Below, one piece after another: positions 6,362 through 50,258 of a stretch of 64,000 nt of DNA. Source of the DNA: Escherichia coli (GTDB lineage: Bacteria > Pseudomonadota > Gammaproteobacteria > Enterobacterales > Enterobacteriaceae); NCBI RefSeq assembly GCF_016026235.1, contig NZ_CP065613.1; one strand, given 5' to 3'. Made by a program: the position numbers and the translations under genes. The notes beneath the pieces were generated by a model. That model made no database searches. It was not told where the DNA came from and saw nothing but the letters and a program-made list of their open reading frames with translations. Every line of letters starts with the position of its first letter. Positions within the stretch are counted from its first letter, which is position 1.

Positions 6362-7177
<816 letters not shown>

Positions 7178-7281
7178 ATCAGCATACTTGTCCTTAGCCT
7201 TCTGCAGTGACAGCTGGTAGTACAGCGTGCTTCTGGCCAGCCCTGCAGCCTTTAACAGGTCAGACTGGCAGTGTCCGCACT

Positions 7282-7812
7282 TCAGGCTCTGGATGACTTT
7301 CGTTTTTTCTCCAGCTCCTGGCGCTTTTTTTCCAGGAGATGCTCCTGCATGGCTTTCAGATATGCATTTTCTGCGCGAAGATAACGCAGCTCATTCTTCA
7401 TCTCTTCCGGCGTCATGTTTCCCTCGTTTTCATGGGTATCATCAGAACGGGTCATGCTTTTCTCCTTCCTGCGCCTGATAAAGGCCTCATTACCAGATTT
7501 GCGGTAGCCTTTTATCCAGTTTTTAACCATGTTGTGGCTGAGAATGTTAAACCGGGCAGCTACCCGGGGTAGAGACTCAGAATGCCCGAGAGCATAAAGA
7601 ACCACGCAAAGTTTATCTTCAGGAGAATAGCTACGCTTGTGTCTGCAATCCAGTGCCTGAGGACCGTGAAGAAGAAAAAGATTAATCCAGTGTGAGAGGC
7701 TGGTGTGAGAAAGTTGAAAGAGTTTTGCCGTAGAAATGATGCCTGCATGACCGGCCAGGTAATGATTTACAGCGGCAAGTTTTACTTCAAATGAATGTTT
7801 CATAAACTGCAC
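7282..7812 (-). CDS. insJ: IS150 OrfA (HTH DNA-binding protein)
   Basis: 176 aa ORF MKHSFEVKLAAVNHYLAGHAGIISTAKLFQLSHTSLSHWINLF... recognised as IS150 InsJ. Confidence 0.9.
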   Translation of the reverse strand: MQFMKHSFEVKLAAVNHYLAGHAGIISTAKLFQLSHTSLSHWINLFLLHGPQALDCRHKRSYSPEDKLCVVLYALGHSESLPRVAARFNILSHNMVKNWIKGYRKSGNEAFIRRRKEKSMTRSDDTHENEGNMTPEEMKNELRYLRAENAYLKAMQEHLLEKKRQELEKKRKSSRA

Positions 7813-7908
7813 CTTCAGATGTCAGATTATGTCCAACATTTGGGGTGCAGTTCATGGCGCGTCTTATCAGGCCTAAAGGGATTTCTAACTCATTGATAAA
7901 TTTTTTTT

Positions 7909-20982: not shown

Positions 20983-22764
20983 GTGAGCGATATTGTTTAC
21001 CTGAGAATAATCGGTGAGAAGCAGGGCGATATTTCTTCAGGCTGTGGGACGTATGCGTCGGTTGGTAATCGCTGGCAGGTTGGCCATGAAGATGAAATTT
21101 TTGCCTTTGCACTCACCAACGCCATTACCAGTACTGGTAATGGCGTTAATCTACAGGGGCTACAATTTTGCAAACTCATTGATAAAAGCTCACCGCTACT
21201 GTCTAATGCCATCAATCAGAATGAGCGGTTATTTATTGAAATCGATTTGTATCGTATAAATAAAAGCGGGCGCTGGGAACGGTATTATTATATTCAGCTA
21301 AGAAATGCTTCATTAACTGCTATTCATGTAAACATTTCTGACAATAATCTTCCTACCGAATGTGTAACTGTCGATTATCACTACATATTATGTAAACATC
21401 TAATAGCCAATACGGAATTTGACTGGTTGGCCTTTCCTGCTGGCTATAATAGCTTATTTATTCCGCCTAAAAGCCCACCTGCCAGTAATCTTAAGCCTGA
21501 ACCTCTACCAGTTGTTAACCTTCCACTCTCTTCACCAGCGGTTAACCCGGTCTATGCCAAATCCTGTCTGAAGGAGAAGGGATGTACAGATGCTGGAACG
21601 GCAGAAGAACCCGCTGAAAACTTCGGTCAAGTAGCGATTTTTGCTCAGCCAGTGGTTGATGACTGCTGTGGATACCACCATCCCGAGGCTAACGATGTCG
21701 GGCAACCCGCAGAAGCTCAAACCATGCTACTGTTTCCGGGTAGTGTGTTGGCGGCTCAAATATGGGGAAAATGGTCGCTCAGTGGCATACTCAGTGCAAC
21801 CCGCGGCTCTTACATCGGTGCGTTGGCATCTGCTTTGTATATTCCCTCTGCGGGCGAGGGCAGTGCTCGCGTGCTCGGACGTGATGAGTTCTGGTATGAG
21901 GAAGAACTGCGGCAGAAAGCACTAGCAGGCAGTACCGCCACCACCCGGGTACGTTTTTTCTGGGGAACTGATATTCACGGCAAGCCTCAGGTGTATGGTG
22001 TTCATACGGGTGAAGGTACGCCGTATGAAAACGTCCGCGTGGCGAACATGCAGTGGAACGAGCAGACGCAGCGTTATGAATTTACCCCCGCTCACGATGT
22101 CGATGGCCCCCTGATTACCTGGACGCCGGAAAATCCGGAACATGGGAATGTTCCGGGCCATACCGGTAACGACAGGCCGCCGCTGGATCAGCCCACCATT
22201 CTGGTGACGCCGATTCCGGACGGTACAGATACCTATACCACGCCGCCATTCCCGGTTCCTGATCCGAAAGAATTCAACGATTATATTCTGGTTTTTCCGG
22301 CGGGATCCGGTATTAAGCCCATCTATGTTTACCTGAAGGAGGATCCGCGAAAGCTGCCTGGTGTTGTAACAGGGCGCGGCGTCCCGCTTTCATCAGGAAC
22401 TCGCTGGCTGGATATGTCGGTATCCAATAACGGCAACGGCGCGCCAATCCCGGCGCATATTGCTGATAAATTGCGCGGACGGGAGTTTAAAACCTTTGAT
22501 GAGTTTCGCGAGGCGCTGTGGCTGGAGGTGAGTCAGGATCCGGAGTTGATAGCGCAGTTTTCAAGTGGTAACCAAACACGTATAAAACAAGGATTAACCG
22601 CAAAAGCACCTATTGACGGTTGGCATTATGGCCCTAAAGAAATAGTTAAAAAATTCCAGATACATCATCGTGTTGCAATTGAATATGGCGGCAGCGTATA
22701 CGATATTGATAATTTACGAATTGTTACCCCCAGACTACACGATGAGATTCACTACAGGAGATAA
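20983..22764 (+). CDS. Hcp (T6SS tube protein) fused to a C-terminal colicin E9-type HNH DNase domain (Hcp-ET class effector)
   Basis: N-terminal ~165 aa Hcp-like (LRIIGEKQGDISSG, GHEDE, SPLLSNAI, QLRNASLTAIHV); Pro-rich linker; C-terminal ~130 aa alignable with colicin E9 DNase (GAPIPAHIADKLRGREFKTFDEFREALWLEVSQDPEL ... HHRVAIEYGGSVYDIDNLRIVTPRLHDEIH); GTG start in an AT-rich leader. Confidence 0.85.
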   Translation: MSDIVYLRIIGEKQGDISSGCGTYASVGNRWQVGHEDEIFAFALTNAITSTGNGVNLQGLQFCKLIDKSSPLLSNAINQNERLFIEIDLYRINKSGRWERYYYIQLRNASLTAIHVNISDNNLPTECVTVDYHYILCKHLIANTEFDWLAFPAGYNSLFIPPKSPPASNLKPEPLPVVNLPLSSPAVNPVYAKSCLKEKGCTDAGTAEEPAENFGQVAIFAQPVVDDCCGYHHPEANDVGQPAEAQTMLLFPGSVLAAQIWGKWSLSGILSATRGSYIGALASALYIPSAGEGSARVLGRDEFWYEEELRQKALAGSTATTRVRFFWGTDIHGKPQVYGVHTGEGTPYENVRVANMQWNEQTQRYEFTPAHDVDGPLITWTPENPEHGNVPGHTGNDRPPLDQPTILVTPIPDGTDTYTTPPFPVPDPKEFNDYILVFPAGSGIKPIYVYLKEDPRKLPGVVTGRGVPLSSGTRWLDMSVSNNGNGAPIPAHIADKLRGREFKTFDEFREALWLEVSQDPELIAQFSSGNQTRIKQGLTAKAPIDGWHYGPKEIVKKFQIHHRVAIEYGGSVYDIDNLRIVTPRLHDEIHYRR

Positions 22765-22766
22765 AT

Positions 22767-23051
22767 ATGTTTAAAGAAAAGCTCCAGGATTATACCGAGG
22801 ATGAATTTCTTAATTTTTTAGGCGGATTGAGATCATCTATGAAAGATGGAAAATCCTTAAAAGGTAAGGAGCTAGAAATGTACTGGGATTCATTAGTAGA
22901 TCATTTTATTGAAATTACACAGCATCCGTCAGGGAGCGATCTAATTTTCTACCCTAAAAGTCAAGGAGATGATAAGCCTGAAAACATCCTGAAAATTGTC
23001 AAAGAATGGCGGCGTTCACAGGGGTTACCCTTGTTTAAAGACTCTAAATAA
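22767..23051 (+). CDS. Colicin-DNase immunity protein (Im9-like), cognate to the Hcp-DNase
   Basis: 94 aa; DYTEDEFLNFL ... ITQHPSGSDLIFYP ... resembles Im9 (DYTEAEFL ... TEHPSGSDLIYYP); starts 3 nt after the toxin stop. Confidence 0.85.
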   Translation: MFKEKLQDYTEDEFLNFLGGLRSSMKDGKSLKGKELEMYWDSLVDHFIEITQHPSGSDLIFYPKSQGDDKPENILKIVKEWRRSQGLPLFKDSK

Positions 23052-23204
23052 AGTAGATAATAAAACTATATATGGAACATCATCGCATCTGGCTAATGCG
23101 ATGATATTAATGACATAAAATAATAATGTGATTGCTCTTAAAAAACAGGTAAAAATACTGAAGCCTCATTAGGTTATTTTATCATTTTCCCGCTTTTACC
23201 GATA

Positions 23205-23458
23205 CCCTTTGGCTGGAGGTGAGTCAGTATCCGGAGTTGATAGCGCAGTTTTCAAGCGGTAATCAAACACGTATAAAACAAGGATTAATCGCAAAAGCAC
23301 CACTTGAAGGTTGGCATTATGGCACTAAAGAAATCGTTAAAAAATTCCACATGGATCATCGTGTTGCGATTGAATATAGTGGCGGAATTTACGATATTGA
23401 TAATTTAAGGAGGGCACACCTCATTTGCATGATGAAATTTATTACAGGAGATAGTTAA
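23205..23458 (+). pseudogene. Orphan HNH-DNase C-terminal fragment, no Hcp or linker, frameshifted at the 3' end
   Basis: Homology to the primary toxin begins abruptly at WLEVSQYPELIAQFSSGNQTRIKQGL...; the final HDEIYYRR motif is out of frame. Confidence 0.7.
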
Positions 23459-23749
23459 ATGTATAATTTTAAAGATAAAATAGAAGATTACACAGAGCGG
23501 GAATTCATTGAGTTGCTTGGCGAGTTTACAAATCCAACCGGGGATAACGCTCAATTAAAAGGGGAAGAGCTTGACAAATATTGGGATGATCTAGAAGAAC
23601 ATCTTACCAGAATTACACAACATCCGTTGATGAGCGATCTTATCTACTATCCTGCAAAGAAGGGAGATGATGAACCTGAAAACATCCTGAAAATTGTCAA
23701 AGAATGGCGGCGTTCACAGGGGCTACCCTTGTTTAAAGACTCTAAATAA
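23459..23749 (+). CDS. Orphan Im9-like immunity protein (variant 2)
   Basis: 96 aa; divergent N-terminal half, C-terminal PENILKIVKEWRRSQGLPLFKDSK identical to immunity 1. Confidence 0.8.
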   Translation: MYNFKDKIEDYTEREFIELLGEFTNPTGDNAQLKGEELDKYWDDLEEHLTRITQHPLMSDLIYYPAKKGDDEPENILKIVKEWRRSQGLPLFKDSK

Positions 23750-23901
23750 AGTAGATAATAAAACTATATATGGAACATCATCGCGTCTGGCTAATGCGAT
23801 GATGTTAATAACATAAAATAATAATGTGGGTGCTCTTAATAAACAGGTAAAATACTGAAATCTCATTAGGTTATTTTATCAATTTCCCGCTTTCACCGAT
23901 A

Positions 23902-24152
23902 CCCTTTGGCTGGAGGTGAGTCAGTATCCGGAGTTGATAGCGCAGTTTTCAACTGGTAACCAAACACGTATAAAACAAGGATTAATCGCAAAAGCGCCTC
24001 TTGAAGGTTGGCATTATGGATCTAAGGAAATTGTTGAAGAATTCCATATATATCATAGTGTTGCGATTGAATGTGGTGGCGAAATTTATTATATTGATAA
24101 TTAAAGGATTGTTACGTCTCGACTACATGATGAAATTCACTACAGGAGATAA
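23902..24152 (+). pseudogene. Orphan HNH-DNase C-terminal fragment with premature stop (TTA to TAA) before the terminal catalytic His motif
   Basis: WLEVSQYPELIAQFSTGNQTRIKQGLIAKAPLEGWHYGSKEIVEEFHIYHSVAIECGGEIYYIDN-stop, then in-frame RIVTSRLHDEIHYRR. Confidence 0.7.
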
Positions 24153-24448
24153 TGTATATGCATGATTTAAAATATAAAATATATTTTTACACAGAAGGTG
24201 AATTTCTTGAAATGCTTGAGGAGATAGTAAATGCAACTAGCAAAGATAAATCCCTAAAAGGGAAAAAATTAGAAAAATATCTCGATACCTTAGTGGATCA
24301 TTTCATTAAAATTACTGAACATCCTAAAAAGGGAGATCCCATTTTCTATCCTAATTCCCCAGAAGATGGTAAACCTGAAAACATCCTGAAAATCGTCAAA
24401 GAATGGCGGCGTTCGCAAGGATTGCCTTTGTTCAAAGATTCAGAATGA
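24152..24448 (+). CDS. Orphan Im9-like immunity protein (variant 3)
   Basis: 98 aa; conserved C-terminal PENILKIVKEWRRSQGLPLFKDSE, divergent N-terminal half. Confidence 0.8.
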   Translation: MYMHDLKYKIYFYTEGEFLEMLEEIVNATSKDKSLKGKKLEKYLDTLVDHFIKITEHPKKGDPIFYPNSPEDGKPENILKIVKEWRRSQGLPLFKDSE

Positions 24449-38391: not shown

Positions 38392-38979
38392 TCAGAAAGG
38401 AGGGTAATCGTTCTGGCTGTAACCATAATCATCTGCATGATTATGGCTTACGTTTTTAGAGCGATTGTCTTTATCTTTGAGGCTGCCAACCATGTTGGCG
38501 ATAGTTTCTGGTTGCTTGCCTTCCGCCTTTTCTTTAAGGGTTTGACCTGTTTGTGCAATAAACGGGATGCGTATTTCCATCTGGTAGCTGTCTGCGCCAG
38601 TCTTTTTGTTTGTGGTTAATACTTTCTGGAGCACTAACCCGATTTTCTTTCCATGAAATTCAGGAGCAACAAATTTACTGGCGGAAACCATATGTTGCGT
38701 TAACTGCTTAATCCCAACACACCCCATCATGGCATGAACGACGTTTGCACCAAACTTGTTTTCCGTTCCGTCATTTTTCTGAACACAAACGCTAAGATAT
38801 TGGATTTTACGTCCGTCGTCGGATTCGCCAGAAAGCTCAATAAATTTTGCGCCTTTTTCTGATTGCTTTAGTTCTGCTTCAGTAATGGTAATGATATGAG
38901 CGCCAGTTTCGTTAATAAAACCACCTTGCCCTGCGGTCAGTGCTGCTTCTTCGTTATAAGTAAAAATCACGTTGCTCAT
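38392..38979 (-). CDS. DUF669-like protein (putative ssDNA-binding partner of Sak4-type recombinases)
   Basis: 195 aa ORF immediately downstream of and overlapping the AAA ATPase gene. Confidence 0.45.
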   Translation of the reverse strand: MSNVIFTYNEEAALTAGQGGFINETGAHIITITEAELKQSEKGAKFIELSGESDDGRKIQYLSVCVQKNDGTENKFGANVVHAMMGCVGIKQLTQHMVSASKFVAPEFHGKKIGLVLQKVLTTNKKTGADSYQMEIRIPFIAQTGQTLKEKAEGKQPETIANMVGSLKDKDNRSKNVSHNHADDYGYSQNDYPPF

Positions 38980-39656
38980 GCGGCGTTTTCCTTAATTTGA
39001 TGAACATTATTGATGCCGTAGTAATCACAAACAGTGGCATCGACGAAAGAGAGATCGTTATCAATCTCATTGGAGTCAAACATTCCCATTGGGGATTTAA
39101 CAGTGTCTGCACCGTTGTTTTTCGTGGTGAAAAAGAACTGGTCATCACGGGTAAGGGTGCGAAGAACTATAGTAAACATGCCTTCGACAGTGATTTTCTC
39201 GTCCAGCATTTTTCCTATAGTTTTCATTTTCACGCGCCCCATAGGGGTTTCTTCGGTGTGCGCAAGAAAATAGACTCTCAGGTCATCTGGCGCATCCTGT
39301 GCAGCCTTAATCACCTCCCATGCGTGGCGGCCTATCTCAGTAAATTTATCAAACGATTTTTCTTCTGAGCGGCGCATAAACTCATTGCTCATCACATACT
39401 GGAAGTCATCAACAATAACGATTCTTTTCCCGTATTCGTGAGCACGCTTAATTACGGCAACTATTACGCCCCATTTATCAGTGGTAACTACGGTTCCTTT
39501 TTTTGCTCTGGCATCCCATGCCAGCCAGTCTTTTGATTTAAATGGCAGCGGCTTGCCTATTGGTTTTATAAGTATTGCTTCCTCTGGATTGATATTTCTC
39601 ATGCTGGTTGATTTTCCGGTGCCAGATTCACCGAGTATTAATGTCGCAGTTCCCAT
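38976..39656 (-). CDS. Sak4-like RecA-fold ATPase (phage recombination/annealing protein)
   Basis: 226 aa with Walker A ILGESGTGKST and Walker B-like IVIVDDF; occupies the position of lambda exo/bet. Confidence 0.6.
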   Translation of the reverse strand: MGTATLILGESGTGKSTSMRNINPEEAILIKPIGKPLPFKSKDWLAWDARAKKGTVVTTDKWGVIVAVIKRAHEYGKRIVIVDDFQYVMSNEFMRRSEEKSFDKFTEIGRHAWEVIKAAQDAPDDLRVYFLAHTEETPMGRVKMKTIGKMLDEKITVEGMFTIVLRTLTRDDQFFFTTKNNGADTVKSPMGMFDSNEIDNDLSFVDATVCDYYGINNVHQIKENAA

Positions 39657-39664
39657 AATTTGCC

Positions 39665-39865
39665 TCAGAATGGTAATTCGGATGGGGTGGAAAGAAATTC
39701 GCGCTCATTCATGCGCTCTCTTTGCGCCTGCCATAAGCAAAGTTGTTTCTTTGATTTATCTCCCGCTTTACGCCAGTAACGAGCCTCAGCAATGTGATAC
39801 TCTCTTTTTAATCGACTTAACTCTGGGGTTTTCGCCAGTTCTACCGGAATCATTTTGACCTCCAT
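39665..39865 (-). CDS. Hypothetical small prophage protein
   Basis: 66 aa ORF. Confidence 0.35.
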   Translation of the reverse strand: MEVKMIPVELAKTPELSRLKREYHIAEARYWRKAGDKSKKQLCLWQAQRERMNEREFLSTPSELPF

Positions 39866-39948
39866 TTTTTATAAGCGTCGACGGCTTCACGAAACATCTT
39901 TTCATCGCCAATAAAAGTGGCGATAGTGAATTTAGTCTGGATAGCCAT
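39850..39948 (-). pseudogene. kil: kil remnant (host-killing FtsZ inhibitor), codons 6 onward; codons 1-5 (MDQTL) lie at 41216-41230 on the far side of the IS600-like element
   Basis: MAIQTKFTIATFIGDEKMFREAVDAYKKW... matches lambda Kil from residue 6; the ATA target duplication rejoins to give MDQTLMAIQTKF. Confidence 0.75.
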
Positions 39949-39992
39949 ATGAGGTGTACTGGCAATAGCGGACACTACCATTTGTTCTTTTT

Positions 39993-40811
39993 TTAAGCAG
40001 CCATCTGATGATATTTTTCCCTGAAGGCTGCCGGGGAGATATTCCCCAGACGAGAGTGACGACGCTGACGATTGTAGAAAATCTCAATGTATTCCCGTAT
40101 TACTGAGATGGCCTCATTCCGGCTCTTAAAACGATAGTGGCTCAGGCTCTCATTTTTCAGCGTTCCCCAGAAGCTTTCCATCGGAGCGTTGTCGTAACAG
40201 TTACCTTTACGCGACATTGATGTTTTCAGACCAGACTGCTCCTGTATGACCCGGTAATCGTATGCGCAGTACTGTGAACCTCGATCGGAGTGGTGGATTA
40301 GCCCGGCAGGTGGGCGCTGGCTCCTGAGCGCCATAAACAGGGCTTTACCTGTCAGCTCTTTTGTCATGCGCTCTCCCATGGCGTAGCCGACAATTTCGCA
40401 CGTATAAACATCTTTGATGCCAGCGAGGTACAACCATCCCTCCTGTGTGGCAACATACGTCAGGTCCGCCACCCAGACCTGATTTGGTGCTGTAGGAGCG
40501 AACGTCTGGTTCAGCAGATTTGGCGCAACTGGCAGATTGTGGTTCGAGTTCGTAGTCGCTCTGAACTTGCGTTTCTGCTTACAGCGTAGCCTTAGCTCCT
40601 TACGAAGACGTGCCAGTCGGTCACGACCAACGATGATGCCATTCTCTGCCAGCTCCGTCTGGAGCCGCCGGGTTCCATATGTTTCGCGAGTGCGGATATG
40701 TGCCACCTTAATCTCCAGTTTTAGCCGCTCATCACTTTGTTTTCTGTCTGAGGGTTCATGCTGTACCCAGTTGTAATAACCGCTCCTGGATACACCAAAT
40801 ACCCGACACAT
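39993..40811 (-). CDS. IS3-family transposase OrfB (DDE)
   Basis: 272 aa rve-domain ORF. Confidence 0.85.
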   Translation of the reverse strand: MCRVFGVSRSGYYNWVQHEPSDRKQSDERLKLEIKVAHIRTRETYGTRRLQTELAENGIIVGRDRLARLRKELRLRCKQKRKFRATTNSNHNLPVAPNLLNQTFAPTAPNQVWVADLTYVATQEGWLYLAGIKDVYTCEIVGYAMGERMTKELTGKALFMALRSQRPPAGLIHHSDRGSQYCAYDYRVIQEQSGLKTSMSRKGNCYDNAPMESFWGTLKNESLSHYRFKSRNEAISVIREYIEIFYNRQRRHSRLGNISPAAFREKYHQMAA

Positions 40812-40846
40812 CGCTTCAATGGGAAATTGTTGTCGCCATTGTTCGA

Positions 40847-41149
40847 TTAACGCGTATTTTTCAGCGACTCCTGTGCAAAATACGCTGTTGCTTTTTTTAA
40901 TATATCTCGCTCAAGGCGAGCTTCATTTAACGCCTTACGCAGTTGCAGAATTTCAGATTCCAGTTCAGCCACCGTGCGGGAACCAGGAGTACCGAGCCCT
41001 TTTCTGGCGGCGGTAACCCATTGTCCTAAAGTGCCTTCAGGAAGGGATAATCGGGAAGCGCCTTCACTGATCGAAAGTTGATTTTCAAGAACCGTTCTGA
41101 CAGCTTCGGCTTTGAACTCTTTAGAGTAACGTTGGGTTTTTCTGCTCAT
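40847..41149 (-). CDS. IS3-family transposase OrfA (HTH)
   Basis: 100 aa MSRKTQRYSKEFKAEAVRTVLENQLSISEGASRL... Confidence 0.85.
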   Translation of the reverse strand: MSRKTQRYSKEFKAEAVRTVLENQLSISEGASRLSLPEGTLGQWVTAARKGLGTPGSRTVAELESEILQLRKALNEARLERDILKKATAYFAQESLKNTR

Positions 41150-41210
41150 TATTAGCTCCTTCTGATGCCATTCTATTTCAGGAAGGAGTGTCCGTTAAAC
41201 TCAGGCTACC

Positions 41211-41363
41211 TCAATAAGTGTTTGATCCATTCTTTGGGACTCCTGGCTGATTAAGTATGTCGATAAGGCGTTTCCATCCGTCACGTAATTTACGGGTGAT
41301 TCGTTCAAGTAAAGATTCGGAAGGGCAGCCAGCAACAGGCCACCCTGCAATGGCATATTGCAT
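41211..41363 (-). CDS. cIII: cIII (FtsH inhibitor), last 4 codons replaced by a stop inside the IS inverted repeat
   Basis: MQYAIAGWPVAGCPSESLLERITRKLRDGWKRLIDILNQPGVPKNGSNTY-stop; lambda cIII continues GYPD. Confidence 0.8.
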   Translation of the reverse strand: MQYAIAGWPVAGCPSESLLERITRKLRDGWKRLIDILNQPGVPKNGSNTY

Positions 41364-41462
41364 GGTGTGCTCCTTATTTACGCTTTAAATTGCTCCGTGT
41401 ATTCACTCGTTGGAATGAATACACAGTGCAGTGTTTATTCTGTTGTTTATGCCAAAATAATT

Positions 41463-41705
41463 TTAATCAGCAATAAACTCTTCTGGTAATTTATCAACTA
41501 TTTGATGACTTATTATCAGCCATTTGCCATCCTTCGTTTCGTATGCATATTTCTGGTCTTTTATCATCATGTGTTCAGCTACTGCCTTAACTGCCTGTTC
41601 GGTTACATCTTCTTTCTTTCCCACCCACATTCCTTTTTCAGTGTTTAATGTTCCTTGAAAAATACGACCACTTAATGGGCTTGCGCCCATAGTTTTTACT
41701 CTCAT
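41463..41705 (-). CDS. Hypothetical early-left protein between N and cIII
   Basis: 80 aa ORF. Confidence 0.4.
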   Translation of the reverse strand: MRVKTMGASPLSGRIFQGTLNTEKGMWVGKKEDVTEQAVKAVAEHMMIKDQKYAYETKDGKWLIISHQIVDKLPEEFIAD

Positions 41706-41715
41706 GTATCAGTCC

Positions 41716-42042
41716 TCAAATAAGTGGTTTGCTGCCTAATTTCATTTTCTGGCGACCAACACAAGTCACACCCATTTCACTGCGTGGCTTGCTGTACCAT
41801 GTGCGCTGATTCTTGCGCTCAATACGTTGCAGGTTGCTTTCAATCTGTTCGTGGTATTCAGCCAGCACTGTAAGGTCTATCGGATTCAGCGCGCTTTCTA
41901 CTCGTGATTTCGGTTTGCGATTCAGCGAGAGAATAGGGCGGTTAACTGGTTTTGCGCTTACCCCAACCAACAGGGGATTTGCTGCTTTCCATTGAGCCTG
42001 TTTCTCTGCGCGACGTTCGCGGCGGCGTGTTTGTGCATCCAT
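41716..42042 (-). CDS. N: Antitermination protein N (lambda-type)
   Basis: 107 aa MDAQTRRRERRAEKQAQWKAANPLLVGVSAKPVNRPILSL... with arginine-rich motif; the ORF track adds 30 upstream codons. Confidence 0.9.
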   Translation of the reverse strand: MDAQTRRRERRAEKQAQWKAANPLLVGVSAKPVNRPILSLNRKPKSRVESALNPIDLTVLAEYHEQIESNLQRIERKNQRTWYSKPRSEMGVTCVGRQKMKLGSKPLI

Positions 42043-42152
42043 CTGGATTCTCCTGTCAGTTAGCTTTGAGTAACGCGCCGTGATGCTTATCTCCACGGTT
42101 GCTGTCTTGCAGCTGCATTTCGCGCTACTCAAAGCTTTCTGCTTTGAATGCT

Positions 42153-42184
42153 GCCCTTCTTCAGGGCTTAATTTTTAAGAGCAT
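42153..42184 (-). promoter_or_regulatory. nutL (boxB hairpin GCCCTGAAGAAGGGC plus adjacent boxA-like element)
   Basis: On the bottom strand ...gctcttaaaaattaagccctgaagaagggcagc... upstream of N. Confidence 0.75.
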
Positions 42185-42342
42185 CACCTTCAATGGTGGT
42201 CAGTGCGTCCTGCTGATGGCTAAATAGTACGATTTGTACTTTATCGAGTCAATACAAAATGTTCTAAATATAATTAGTTTCTTATAACGCTTTGTATTTA
42301 ATGGGTTTATATTTTGGAAAAAGAAAACCCGACACTAAGGTC

Positions 42343-43768
42343 TAATGCCGATCAGTTAAGGATCAGTTGACCGATCCAGTGGCTGTGTAAGAATCCGGAA
42401 ACGCTCACTTGTTTCCGGATTTTTTTATGCACATTGGACAGGCTCTTGATCTGGTATCCCGTTACGATTCTCTGCGTAACCCACTGACTTCTCTGGGGGA
42501 TTACCTCGACCCCGAACTCATCTCTCGTTGCCTTGCCGAATCAGGTACTGTAACGCTACGCAAGCGCCGTCTTCCCCTCGAAATGATGGTCTGGTGTATT
42601 GTTGGCATGGCGCTTGAGCGTAAAGAACCTCTTCACCAGATTGTGAATCGCCTGGACATCATGCTGCCGGGCAATCGCCCCTTCGTTGCCCCCAGTGCCG
42701 TTATTCAGGCCCGCCAGCGCCTGGGAAGTGAGGCTGTCCGCCGCGTGTTCACGAAAACAGCGCAGCTCTGGCATAACGCCACGCCGCATCCGCACTGGTG
42801 CGGCCTGACCCTGCTGGCCATCGATGGTGTGTTCTGGCGCACACCGGATACACCAGAGAACGATGCAGCCTTCCCCCGCCAGACACATGCCGGGAACCCG
42901 GCGCTCTACCCGCAGGTCAAAATGGTCTGCCAGATGGAACTGACCAGCCATCTGCTGACGGCTGCAGCCTTCGGCACGATGAAGAACAGCGAAAATGAGC
43001 TTGCTGAGCAACTTATAGAACAAACCGGCGATAACACTCTGACGTTAATGGATAAAGGTTATTACTCACTGGGACTGTTAAATGCCTGGAGCCTGGCGGG
43101 AGAACACCGCCACTGGATGATACCTCTCAGAAAGGGAGCGCAATATGAAGAGCTCAGAAAACTGGGTAAAGGCGATCATCTGGTGAAGCTGAAAACCAGC
43201 CCGCAGGCACGAAAAAAGTGGCCGGGACTGGGAAATGAAGTGACAGCCCGCCTGCTGACCGTGACGCGCAAAGGAAAAGTCTGCCATCTGCTGACGTCGA
43301 TGACGGACGCCATGCGCTTCCCCGGAGGAGAAATGGCGGATCTGTACAGTCATCGCTGGGAAATCGAACTGGGATACAGGGAGATAAAACAGACGATGCA
43401 ACTGAGCAGGCTGACGCTGAGAAGTAAAAAGCCGGAGCTTGTGGAGCAAGAGCTGTGGGGTGTCTTACTGGCTTATAATCTGGTGAGATATCAGATGATT
43501 AAAATGGCGGAACATCTGAAAGGTTACTGGCCGAATCAACTGAGTTTCTCAGAATCATGCGGAATGGTGATGAGAATGCTGATGACATTGCAGGGCGCTT
43601 CACCGGGACGTATACCGGAGCTGATGCGCGATCTTGCAAGTATGGGACAACTTGTGAAATTACCGACGAGAAGGGGAAGGGCCTTCCCGAGAGTGGTAAA
43701 GGAGAGGCCCTGGAAATACCCCACAGCCCCGAAAAAGAGCCAGTCAGTTGCTTAACTGACTGGCATTA
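42343..43768 (+). mobile_element. IS4 (1426 bp) with 12-bp target duplication gacactaaggtc
   Basis: Terminal inverted repeats taatgccgatcagttaagga.../...ttaactgactggcatta; identical 12-mer at 42331-42342 and 43769-43780. Confidence 0.88.
42409..43755 (+). CDS. IS4 transposase
   Basis: 448 aa DDE transposase ORF filling the element. Confidence 0.88.
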
Positions 43769-43815
43769 GACACTAAGGTCGGGTTATTGTTGTGTGCTTT
43801 AGAGTAGTGAGGCTG

Positions 43816-48599: not shown

Positions 48600-49122
48600 G
48601 CATAAATCAGAAACACCAAAAGAAGTTAGAGACTGCTGGCAAACGCCGCTTTGGCTTTTTGATGCACTGGATATTGAGTTTGGATTCTGGCTTGATTCGG
48701 CAGCGAGCGACAAAAACGCTCTGTGCGCTCACTGGCTAACTGAGGCCGACGACGCGCTAAATTCTGAGTGGATAAGCCACGGTGCAATCTGGAATAACCC
48801 ACCGTACAGCAATATCAGGCCGTGGGTGGAAAAAGCCGCTGAGCAGTGCATACAACAGCGACAGACGGTAGTGATGCTTGTGCCAGAGGATATGTCTGTC
48901 GGATGGTTCAGTAAGGCTCTGGAGAGTGTTGACGAAGTTCGCATTATCACTGATGGACGGATTAATTTTATCGAACCATCGACAGGGCTGGAGAAGAAGG
49001 GAAACAGCAAAGGCTCCATGCTGCTGATTTGGCGACCGTTCATCAGTCCTCGACGGATGTTTACTACCGTATCCAAAGCGGCATTGATGGCGATCGGGCA
49101 GGGCGTCAGGAGGGCGGCATGA
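48592..49122 (+). CDS. Phage DNA N6-adenine methyltransferase (Dam-like)
   Basis: 176 aa with NPPY motif (IWNNPPYS). Confidence 0.75.
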
Positions 49123-49295
49123 GACGACAGCGACGAAGTATCACCGACATCATCTGCGAAAACTGCAAATACCTTCCAACGAAACGCTCCAGAAATAAAC
49201 GCAAGCCAATCCCAAAAGAATCTGACGTAAAAACCTTCAACTACACGGCTCACCTGTGGGATATCCGGTGGCTAAGACATCGTGCGAGGAAATGA
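49119..49295 (+). CDS. ninE: NinE
   Basis: 58 aa [58 protein letters not shown], matches lambda NinE. Confidence 0.8.
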
Positions 49296-49338
49296 CAATG
49301 GTGCTCGACAAGCCCCGCCGTTCAGGGCGGGGAAATTG

Positions 49339-49644
49339 TTAAGGATGAGGCTGAATTTCTTCAGGTCGGTATTTTGTTGAGAGATGAGAGATGTCAACTT
49401 CTCTCTCTGCTTTTTCAAGACTCCATGCCATCTGAAGACGAATCCATGAGGCCGGAGTTCCTCCAAGAACGGCGGCGAGACGAACAGCCATTTCAGGAGA
49501 GATTGCCGCATTTCCTGAAACCAGTCGCTGAACAGTGGAAGGCGCAACATCAAGCGCTCTTGCCAGCTCTCTGATCCCAATATTCTGATCTTCCAGAATA
49601 TCCGCAATAATTTCTCCTGGATGAGGGGGGTTAAACATCGTCAT
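49339..49644 (-). CDS. higA: HigA-type antitoxin (HTH_XRE)
   Basis: 101 aa; HTH region IGIRELARALDVAPSTVQRLVSG; immediately downstream of and overlapping the toxin gene. Confidence 0.8.
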   Translation of the reverse strand: MTMFNPPHPGEIIADILEDQNIGIRELARALDVAPSTVQRLVSGNAAISPEMAVRLAAVLGGTPASWIRLQMAWSLEKAEREVDISHLSTKYRPEEIQPHP

Positions 49645-49922
49645 TAATGGTAATCCTCGTAGTTAAGAATATAAGCGTCACCGTCACGAAACTCGAAGGT
49701 GATCCTCCAGTTACCGGAGACGGAGACAGACCACGTATCGGCCCTGTCTCCTTGCAACTGGTGCAGCCTGTAACCGGCAAGGTTAATATCATCAATGATT
49801 TCGGCTTGATCTATCACCTGAAGGCGCATTCTAAGGCGTTTAACATGATTGGGATTTACGCCTGATGCACTTCCAGTTTCAAAGAAACGTTGAAGTCCTT
49901 TGTGTTTCCAGCTTTTTATCAT
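49644..49922 (-). CDS. higB: HigB-type toxin (RelE/ParE superfamily mRNA interferase)
   Basis: 92 aa MIKSWKHKGLQRFFETGSASGVNPNHVKRL...NWRITFEFRDGDAYILNYEDYH, typical HigB. Confidence 0.8.
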   Translation of the reverse strand: MIKSWKHKGLQRFFETGSASGVNPNHVKRLRMRLQVIDQAEIIDDINLAGYRLHQLQGDRADTWSVSVSGNWRITFEFRDGDAYILNYEDYH

Positions 49923-50258
49923 GTTTGTTTCCTGTTGCGTTACGCGAATCATTATAGAGTGTGTTGTGTCATTCGCAACCGTTGGTTTGACAAAAACACA
50001 TATCCGGGGCTATATTCCCTGAACGCCAGCAAATCTGGCGTCGGGATTGGCGTCCCGGATATCGAAACGGTGCATAACCGCGCTGGCGGTTTTTTTATGC
50101 GCTAAGCACAGTCACATTCGCGATTTATGGTGGGCTGTGTGGGGGAGTTGAGAGACTCGCCGGATGTTTCGACCGGTTACGCCAACCCTGCACAGTTCAC
50201 CACCCAGCGATTGGCGTCGCAGGTGGTGAGTTAAAAACCATCGAAACGCGAGGTCGTT

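Follow-up and report, generated by a model that had tools for sequence, protein, structure and literature searches.

Is the loss of a toxic prophage gene selected by the host, or a mere by-product of the spread of mobile elements? The question is raised by a 64,000-nucleotide stretch of Escherichia coli DNA (hereafter the window), in which kil, a gene of a lambda-like prophage, is disrupted by IS600. The element and its parts are as follows.

39950 to 41213, minus strand: complete 1264-bp copy of IS600 (IS3 family), assigned by identity to annotated copies; IRL lies at the 41213 end, IRR at the 39950 end
39947 to 39949: first copy of the target-site duplication, ATA on the plus strand, TAT on the coding strand
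41214 to 41216: second copy of the target-site duplication, ATA on the plus strand
40847 to 41149, minus strand: IS600 orfA, 100 aa, with a HTH
39993 to 40811, minus strand: IS600 orfB ORF, 272 aa from the first ATG, predicted to be expressed as OrfAB via a -1 frameshift
40891 to 40898, minus strand: A7G slippery run in the orfA/orfB overlap, candidate site of the programmed -1 frameshift

The sequence-only reading had described an IS600 of 1264 bp, of the IS3 family, with a 3-bp ATA duplication, and all its sequence statements hold. The element starts with TGAGGTG and finishes with CTACCTCA. The inverted repeats, of the TG...CA type, are imperfect (TGAGGTGTACTGG... versus TGAGGTAGCCTGA...), as about 20 of the 29 outermost positions match, and the flanking TAT/TAT is a 3-bp direct target duplication. 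Identity is complete (100%, 1264/1264 bp) to a copy annotated on the E. coli plasmid NZ_CP065616.1, and measures 99.4–99.5% over 1264 bp to copies from S. sonnei, S. dysenteriae and S. boydii; the matched copies are labelled in the database as 'IS3-like element IS600 family transposase'. A 'programmed frameshift' is marked by PGAP in copies 99.3–99.4% identical to the window one. The fused 385-aa OrfAB matches the IS3 transposase profile NF033516 from position 1 to 369 of 369, with a score of 413 bits (cut-off, 160), and the transposase, judged from its reading frame, is a full-length, intact ORF. IS600 itself is an already known mobile element, and its insertion here is real but ordinary.

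Misjoins commonly arise from IS copies, and a repeat-collapsing assembler could have wrongly placed one in kil. This general tendency, with no specific support at this locus, is opposed by the perfect 3-bp duplication and by the exact restoration of kil and cIII upon excision described below. Both the cIII-side IS600 junction and a neighbouring IS4 junction recur, at 99.87% identity, in the independent public assembly GCA_001907395.1 (locus L011), which makes a misassembly unlikely; the odds that the insertion is an artefact are virtually nil.

The two parts of the disrupted gene are found at either side of the element.

41216 to 41230, minus strand: kil 5' fragment, codons 1–5 (ATG GAT CAA ACA CTT, MDQTL)
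39850 to 39948, minus strand: kil 3' fragment, codons 6–37 plus the stop

Codon 6 (ATG) begins at 39948, and the stop codon spans 39852 to 39850. The sequence-only reading had put the split between codons 5 and 6, which is correct to the base. Deletion in silico of IS600 and one copy of the duplication, a check proposed with the sequence-only reading, yields a continuous 37-aa Kil, MDQTLMAIQTKFTIATFIGDEKMFREAVDAYKKWRSK, and an intact kil/cIII overlap, with a CIII of 54 aa (...PKNGSNTYGYPD). Besides the IS600 split, no additional defects were found in the kil fragments. The restored Kil matches PHROG 3924 ('Kil protein for bacterial septation inhibition') along residues 1–37 (E=4.9e-27), and residues 1–34 are identical to those of the commonest 47-aa alleles sampled. 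The position is also that of the Kil family, as kil, part of the N-dependent pL operon, begins within the 3' end of cIII. The 37-aa allele accompanies a Sak4/DUF669 module replacing gam-bet-exo, and is found in 30 of the 117 sampled loci.

Killing by Kil is abolished by an early stop codon, by an amber mutation at codon 31 or by deletion of codons 20–26 (PMC3961180). As interrupted, the 5' fragment reads MDQTLIEVA before a stop. Since the native product is reduced to this peptide of 9 residues, and the other 32 codons are left with no translation start of their own, Kil is most probably not made from the interrupted allele, and its activity would be lost. A kil::IS600 lysogen is predicted to lack Kil-dependent filamentation upon induction. 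A hybrid ORF of 43 aa (39850 to 39981, minus strand) starts within the IS600 end, and joins 11 IS-encoded residues to Kil residues 6–37. As N-terminally tagged His6-FLAG-Kil is active (PMC3961180), the hybrid ORF may yield a weakly expressed, active Kil variant; an exact-sequence look-up of the 43-aa ORF matched no database record.

The element also clips the overlapping gene.

41211 to 41363, minus strand: cIII, shortened to 50 codons, with the stop TGA at 41213 to 41211 provided by the IS600 terminus

The product ends in ...NTY, and the TGA which follows corresponds to the first three bases of the IS600 end. That the element supplies a stop replacing the last four CIII residues had been correctly noted: residues 51–54 (GYPD) are lost, while residues 1–50 keep their sequence. 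PF02061 (Lambda_CIII) is recorded for the exact 50-aa product. A natural 46-aa allele, annotated as CIII by PGAP, is found in 23 of 107 sampled loci, and CIII residues 14–37 are both essential and sufficient for activity (PMC1838920). On these grounds the clip, being within natural variation, is almost certainly harmless. As only residues 51–54 are missing and the active core is kept, the protein most probably still works.

Whether genes located 3' of kil are affected depends on the elements of the operon listed below.

42224 to 42252, minus strand: pL-like promoter, TTGACT-17-TACTAT, a consensus match only
42153 to 42167, minus strand: hairpin (GCCCTGAAGAAGGGC) of nutL, which we take to be a boxB of lambda type from established lambda knowledge
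41716 to 42039, minus strand: N antiterminator of lambda type, intact and 107 aa long; in L011 the gene has a PF11438/N36 record
38976 to 39656, minus strand: Sak4-like ssDNA-annealing ATPase, 3' of kil (phrog_2872, E=1e-107)
38392 to 38979, minus strand: DUF669/SSB-like protein (phrog_743; 'DUF669' according to PGAP in locus L002)

The identities proposed for the downstream genes (Sak4-like, DUF669/SSB-like, Ea22-like) were borne out, but the polar effect attributed to the insertion is doubtful. Terminator prediction on the transcribed strand revealed no terminator-like site inside IS600, and N, boxB and the pL-like promoter are all intact. N antitermination classically relieves the polarity of IS elements, and the intact N/nutL system should do so here. 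An IS4 resides at 42343 to 43768, within a hairpin downstream of cI. The idea that it severs pL from N-cIII-kil was discarded, as the pL-like promoter, with IS4 on its cI side, remains joined to the three genes.

The sequence-only reading had called IS inactivation of kil a recognised route to prophage domestication. On a domestication reading, the prophage would be unable to excise, and the IS600 knockout would have been favoured because it rids the cell of the FtsZ inhibitor Kil. Cells in which Kil is made from pL form filaments and die, and a defective prophage can be derepressed without loss of the cell when kil is mutated (PMC3961180). In the window, int is frameshifted by a 1-nt deletion in a G-run (about 33,620), a homopolymer in which the change could be a sequencing error. 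The ORFs of O, P, Q, holin, endolysin, Rz and terminase all have the expected length, as assessed within the window, beyond which the tail end of the prophage falls. Q had been suspected to be truncated, but it is another allele, which shows no similarity to the lambda-type Q carried by the relatives. With replication and lysis ORFs of expected length, induction should kill the cell with or without Kil, which speaks against selection for its loss. So does the presence of a cI-like repressor ORF, as pL is repressed in a lysogen. A literature search found no paper linking kil with inactivation by IS600 or IS629, and kil is absent from titles and abstracts of the literature matching kil, domestication and prophage; selected domestication is unsupported, and no precedent for it was found in the literature.

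Comparison with related prophages gives no sign of selection. IS600 resides in the Sak4-like ATPase gene in SJ2D, in the DUF669 gene in 2011C_4247, in antA/B and ninB in FDAARGOS_943, and kil is intact in all three. The element is promiscuous in this prophage family, and hits neighbouring genes just as readily as kil. FDAARGOS_943 is the closest complete genome (99.3% identity across 24 kb), and its plasmid, riddled with IS elements, carries virK, capU and sepA. Three IS elements are found in the 64-kb window.

A search for other insertions at the kil site gave mostly negative results. Neither the window IS600 junction nor an IS629-like junction was found at the site in 5,426 complete E. coli genomes, at least 1,372 of which carry the cIII/kil sequence. 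A scan of IMG/VR for the kil+TGA junction gave no true match versus at least 117 uninterrupted copies, as the 7 matches were all unrelated sequences; the same scan of genome representatives gave merely chance 18-mer matches in unrelated phyla. A full-length kil ORF is found in 114 of 117 IMG/VR kil loci, in a sample which required the first 29 nt of kil to be intact. Look-up of the 50-aa truncated CIII retrieved 41 blocks, and nearly all the contigs examined end at, or 1–2 nt past, ...CTTAT. Control look-ups with CIII truncated to 49 and 51 aa were equally productive (44 and 59 blocks, respectively). The contig ends and the controls mark the 41-block signal as noise from the fragmented assembly of a repeated prophage segment, and a recurrent breakpoint at the kil site was rejected.

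The exception is L008 (SRR33894027), in which a different IS3-family element, a 1310-bp IS629-like unit, is inserted at the same nucleotide in another prophage. In L008, as with IS600 in the window and in L011, the flank is joined to the element directly after ...ATGGATCAAACACTTAT. In L048 an IS629-like insertion is located within cIII, 36 nt ahead of the point where kil starts. The look-up which yielded L008 detected insertions at the exact kil-site codon only, and was thus biased towards a coincidence of this kind. A purely neutral model accounts for the same-nucleotide insertion in L008 only as a coincidence across a very large database. The L008 insertion is a curiosity, not a pattern.

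Sequence or structure of the cIII/kil overlap might attract IS3-family transposases, as the shared joining point of IS600 and the IS629-like element could suggest. Against such attraction, the 123 IS629-like ends retrieved from 120 viral contigs are bordered by 115 different sequences, none of which is the kil site, and five IS600 copies, that of the window and four in related loci, are flanked by unrelated duplications (TAT, GCT, ACT, CTG, GTT) with no common motif. The empty genome and IMG/VR scans, the single-codon scope of the L008 look-up and the equally frequent CIII controls point the same way, and an insertional hot spot is highly improbable. Selected silencing of Kil, to which the L008 and L048 insertions could lend weight, would predict an excess or recurrence of kil inactivation, and only one independent same-site event, L008, was found. 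The lack of both junctions among so many kil-bearing genomes, the prevalence of full-length kil and the hits in neighbouring genes argue further against domestication, which we regard as unlikely. The broader notion that the L008, L048 and window insertions together mark either a structural hot spot for the IS3 family or convergent silencing of Kil in non-excising prophages is distinctly unlikely. If true, convergent silencing would be a natural, recurrent 'safety catch' mutation of locked-in lambdoid prophages.

The insertion is best explained as neutral, a by-product of the expansion of IS600 and one lesion among several in the prophage, next to the int frameshift and IS4, rather than as a selected disarming of Kil, and we hold this to be probable. 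A single intact IS600 would have transposed into a lambda-like prophage of an IS-rich lineage of E. coli/Shigella type, landing within the 32-nt cIII/kil overlap and making the usual 3-bp duplication. The event was probably recent, given the 100% identity to another copy and the kil fragments free of further defects. Transcripts started at pL, with N acting at nutL, should extend across IS600, which has the same orientation, into the Sak4/DUF669/Abc2 genes.

In annotation, the kil fragments should be viewed as one IS-interrupted kil pseudogene, and the shortened cIII as a probably functional gene. In E. coli/Shigella lineages rich in IS elements, accessory genes of lambdoid prophages are eroded by IS600, and the locus adds one more case; beyond annotation, kil::IS600 has little importance. 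Were kil insertions recurrent and selected, they would be relevant to the ways in which hosts disarm toxic genes of prophages, but the present data do not suggest this.

The locus may be compared with four known systems. Lambda Kil is a 47-aa division inhibitor dependent on FtsZ/ZipA (PHROG 3924, Pfam PF06301). The restored ORF of the window, a putative Kil, likewise lies in the pL operon and overlaps cIII at its 3' end, but it measures 37 aa (...KKWRSK) and is split by an IS. Lambda CIII is a 54-aa inhibitor of FtsH (Pfam PF02061); the window product keeps residues 1–50, including region 14–37, and is shorter than the lambda protein, yet longer than the common natural 46-aa allele. IS600 does not differ from the element known in Shigella and E. 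coli, and only its insertion site, between kil codons 5 and 6, is particular. The IS-disrupted lambdoid prophages of FDAARGOS_943, SJ2D and 2011C_4247 share with the window the same IS600, the same prophage module, 3-bp duplications and accessory genes as targets; they differ in that kil is spared, and the genes hit are those of Sak4, DUF669, antA/B and ninB.

The early region of the window prophage is interrupted, within kil and over the 3' end of cIII, by a complete IS3-family element flanked by a duplicated ATA (39947-39949 and 41214-41216). It is made up as follows:

39950..41213, minus strand, IS600 segment holding orfA and orfB (1264 bp)
41149..40847, minus strand, IS600 orfA, transposase ORF from the ORF listing (100 aa)
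40811..39993, minus strand, IS600 orfB, transposase ORF from the ORF listing (272 aa)

The ends (TGAGGTGTACTGG... and TGAGGTAGCCTGA...) are imperfect inverted repeats of the IS600 family, which agree at about 20 of their 29 outermost positions. Among 889 records retrieved from plasmids by megablast, the best is a full-length, 100% identical copy in the E. coli plasmid NZ_CP065616.1; for copies of S. sonnei, S. dysenteriae and S. boydii identity is 99.4-99.5%, and all are annotated as 'IS3-like element IS600 family transposase'. The window carries one copy only. An A7G run lies within the orfA/orfB overlap, and orfA read with a -1 slip at this run yields a 385-aa protein, which spans positions 1-369 of 369 of the NCBIfam IS3 transposase model at 413 bits (cut-off 160 bits). 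The copy is complete and, judging from its sequence, presumably active.

On the minus strand the junctions read ATG GAT CAA ACA CTT AT|TGAGG... at the 41213 end, and ...CCTCA|T ATG GCT ATC CAG... at the 39950 end. Interrupted kil encodes MDQTLIEVA before a stop, and cIII is closed after ...SNTY by a TGA that IS600 supplies with its first three bases. The sequence-only reading had set the 1264-bp insertion between MDQTL (41216-41230) and codon 6 (from 39948), with an ATA target-site duplication, and was right in each of these coordinates. Excision in silico of IS600 and one copy of the duplication leaves an intact kil/cIII overlap, in which both Kil (MDQTLMAIQTKFTIATFIGDEKMFREAVDAYKKWRSK, 37 aa) and CIII (MQYAIAGWPVAGCPSESLLERITRKLRDGWKRLIDILNQPGVPKNGSNTYGYPD, 54 aa) are continuous ORFs. 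Restored Kil scores E=4.9e-27 against PHROG 3924 ('Kil protein for bacterial septation inhibition'), and is only 2-4 residues apart from 37-aa proteins of related prophages, named 'host cell division inhibitory peptide Kil' by PGAP. As a continuous ORF is restored and IS600 repeats are present, the observation stands. Searching for exact matches to CIII truncated at 50 aa led to L011, a 1540-bp contig of GCA_001907395.1 which is 99.87% identical to window 40843..42382, covers the cIII/IS600 junction and extends into the adjoining IS4. Misassembly of the window insertion is improbable, because L011 comes from the same lineage and was independently assembled.

The insertion is absent from 5,426 complete E. 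coli genomes, where a 4-kb query across IS600 found no place with at least 80% cover. A recurrent breakpoint at ...CTTAT was considered and rejected: nearly all of the other truncated-CIII contigs read only end at ...CTTAT, ...CTTATG or ...CTTATGG, and control look-ups with CIII cut to 49 or 51 residues gave 44 and 59 blocks, respectively, versus 41 for 50 aa. By their sequence, they reflect contigs that break off within a repeated prophage segment and do not denote insertions. L008, a Logan assembly of SRR33894027, reads ...ATGGATCAAACACTTAT|TGAACCGCCCCGGGTTTCCTGGAGAG, kil being joined at the same nucleotide as in the window (L008 2997-3038, window 41214-41230). The 26-mer TGAACCGCCCCGGGTTTCCTGGAGAG forms one terminus of a 1310-bp IS3-family element with TGAACCGCCCCGGG inverted repeats, widespread on E. 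coli plasmids and annotated 'IS3 family transposase', which from these ends we take to be IS629/IS1203-like. The L008 prophage is lambdoid and unrelated to that of the window, and as immunity and N region differ, the two insertions are independent. The L008 junction was found in none of the 5,426 complete genomes, though cIII/kil sequence occurs in at least 1,372. In IMG/VR, 120 contigs yield 123 ends of the 1310-bp element; their flanks are of 115 kinds, and none is the kil site. One of these ends, in L048, places the same element type inside cIII, 36 nt ahead of the kil start. Scanning IMG/VR with a degenerate pattern (kil codons 1-5, then TTGA) gave 7 matches, all unrelated sequences; the uninterrupted kil start gave at least 120. 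The look-up behind L008 spans 153 billion gene positions and is blind to insertions except at this codon; the shared nucleotide is treated as a coincidence worth noting, not as a pattern.

Lambda kil acts as a protein; killing is lost through a stop in the 5' part of the gene, an amber at codon 31, deletion of codons 20-26 or disruption of the stop codon, and N-terminally tagged His6-FLAG-Kil is still active (PMC3961180). Since 1267 bp now part the native start from codons 6-37, loss of Kil in the window prophage is a reasonable inference. Codon 6 itself is ATG, and an ATG in the IS600 end, 11 codons upstream of codon 6, opens a 43-aa hybrid ORF (39850..39981) just past the orfB stop; because His6-FLAG-Kil is active, a weakly translated active variant may be made. 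In 117 IMG/VR loci sampled for an intact kil start, Kil measures 37 aa in 30, 47 aa in about 74 and 54 aa in 13, and residues 1-34 are almost invariant. By this comparison the 37-aa form, a putative inhibitor, is a common natural one. The three length classes part exactly after ...KKW (IMG/VR L161-L238; window 39850-41363), where the downstream recombination module switches between gam-bet-exo and Sak4/DUF669.

That cIII is clipped, as the sequence-only reading held, is true; the effect is probably nil. Lambda CIII needs no more than residues 14-37 for its activity, and cannot do without them (PMC1838920, citing Kornitzer et al. 1991); these residues are unaltered in the window. A natural 46-aa allele (...PKNG, then stop), annotated as CIII by PGAP, occurs where Kil has Lys3, in 23/107 sampled loci, so that loss of GYPD falls inside natural variation. 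The Kil Q3K substitution also makes the stop of this allele.

Polarity on the downstream genes had also been proposed. The genes do lie there (a 66-aa protein, Sak4-like annealase, DUF669/SSB-like protein, Abc2, Ea22-like protein); polarity is doubtful, because no terminator-like hairpin is predicted on the minus strand within IS600, and the following features are intact:

41716..42039, minus strand, N, with a lambda-type arginine-rich N terminus
42153..42167, minus strand, lambda-type boxB GCCCTGAAGAAGGGC
42252..42224, minus strand, pL-like promoter

All three remain contiguous with cIII-kil, and IS600 has the orientation of the pL operon. Adhya, Gottesman and de Crombrugghe reportedly found in 1974 that N-modified RNA polymerase overrides Rho-dependent polarity of IS insertions. 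Genes downstream of IS600 should still be transcribed upon induction.

The pL/oL region is separated from cI by a second element:

42343..43768, complete IS4 (1426 bp), with a 12-bp target-site duplication GACACTAAGGTC at 42331-42342 and 43769-43780

IS4 sits in the stem-loop of a terminator-like hairpin that closely follows the cI-like repressor gene. The prophage resides within yacH (DUF3300), beside lpd (window 32031-32900), and not at the lambda attB by ybhC; its junction (..TTCTTATCAGTAA|GTTGAC..) has a non-canonical core, TTCTTATCAGTAA in place of GCTTTTTTATACTAA. Compared with an intact homologue (about 99% identity), lambda-type int (32877-33946, minus strand) lacks one G of a G5 run (about 33,620) and is split into ORFs of 131 and 230 aa; either int is a true pseudogene, the prophage being locked in, or the homopolymer was misread in sequencing. 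CII, O, P, Ren, Q, holin, endolysin, Rz, terminase and portal ORFs have the expected size, the tail lying beyond the window; Q is another allele than in relatives, and two tRNAs are present. An opposite-strand two-gene cassette lies inside the nin region (49272-49952, minus strand).

The chromosomal part of the window (lpxC-secMA-mutT ... aroP, a T6SS Hcp-DNase island, pdhR-aceEF-lpd; names of common genes are taken over from matching genomes) has its closest complete genome in E. coli FDAARGOS_943 (99.3% identity across 24 kb), in which yacH is intact beside lpd. Between aroP and pdhR (20983-24448), a 593-aa fusion protein joins Hcp (TssD) to a DNase-type T6SS effector domain at the C terminus; the small paralogous ORFs that follow (94-98 aa alternating with 62-79 aa) look like an immunity gene array. 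A third IS (IS3 family, about 6420-7853; orfB 6455-7177, orfA 7282-7812) splits a REP/PU palindrome at its midpoint (GCCTGATGCGACGCTGGC | IS | TGGCGCGTCTTATCAGGCC), with mutT on one side and yacG/zapD on the other, an arrangement reminiscent of the REP-specific IS1397.

In FDAARGOS_943 the canonical lambda attB is occupied by a sister prophage, which shares the left-arm module and has an intact kil; IS600 breaks its antA/B and ninB. This prophage matches window 48631-49296, a segment that takes in no more than 25 nt at the start of the nin cassette, at 97.4%; genes annotated as RelE/ParE-family toxin and HTH antitoxin follow. In the STEC-like strains SJ2D and 2011C_4247, IS600 interrupts the Sak4-like ATPase gene and the DUF669 gene, respectively, and the 3-bp duplications at the five copies examined are unrelated. 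A plasmid of FDAARGOS_943, bearing virK, capU and sepA, is crowded with IS elements.

The insertion into kil is most readily understood as an ordinary, probably recent jump, in a lineage where IS600 actively peppers prophage accessory genes; kil is one among several hits, and its disruption need not reflect selection. The case for selection against kil is weak, because pL is under repression in the lysogenic state, induction would in any event kill the cell through the apparently intact genes for replication and lysis, and kil is conserved across other prophages and, in the great majority of them, unbroken. A literature search turned up no support for IS inactivation of kil as a recognised route to prophage domestication. 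The observation stands confirmed; the interpretation first given to it is partly supported. Neither the element nor the phenomenon is novel, both being already known.
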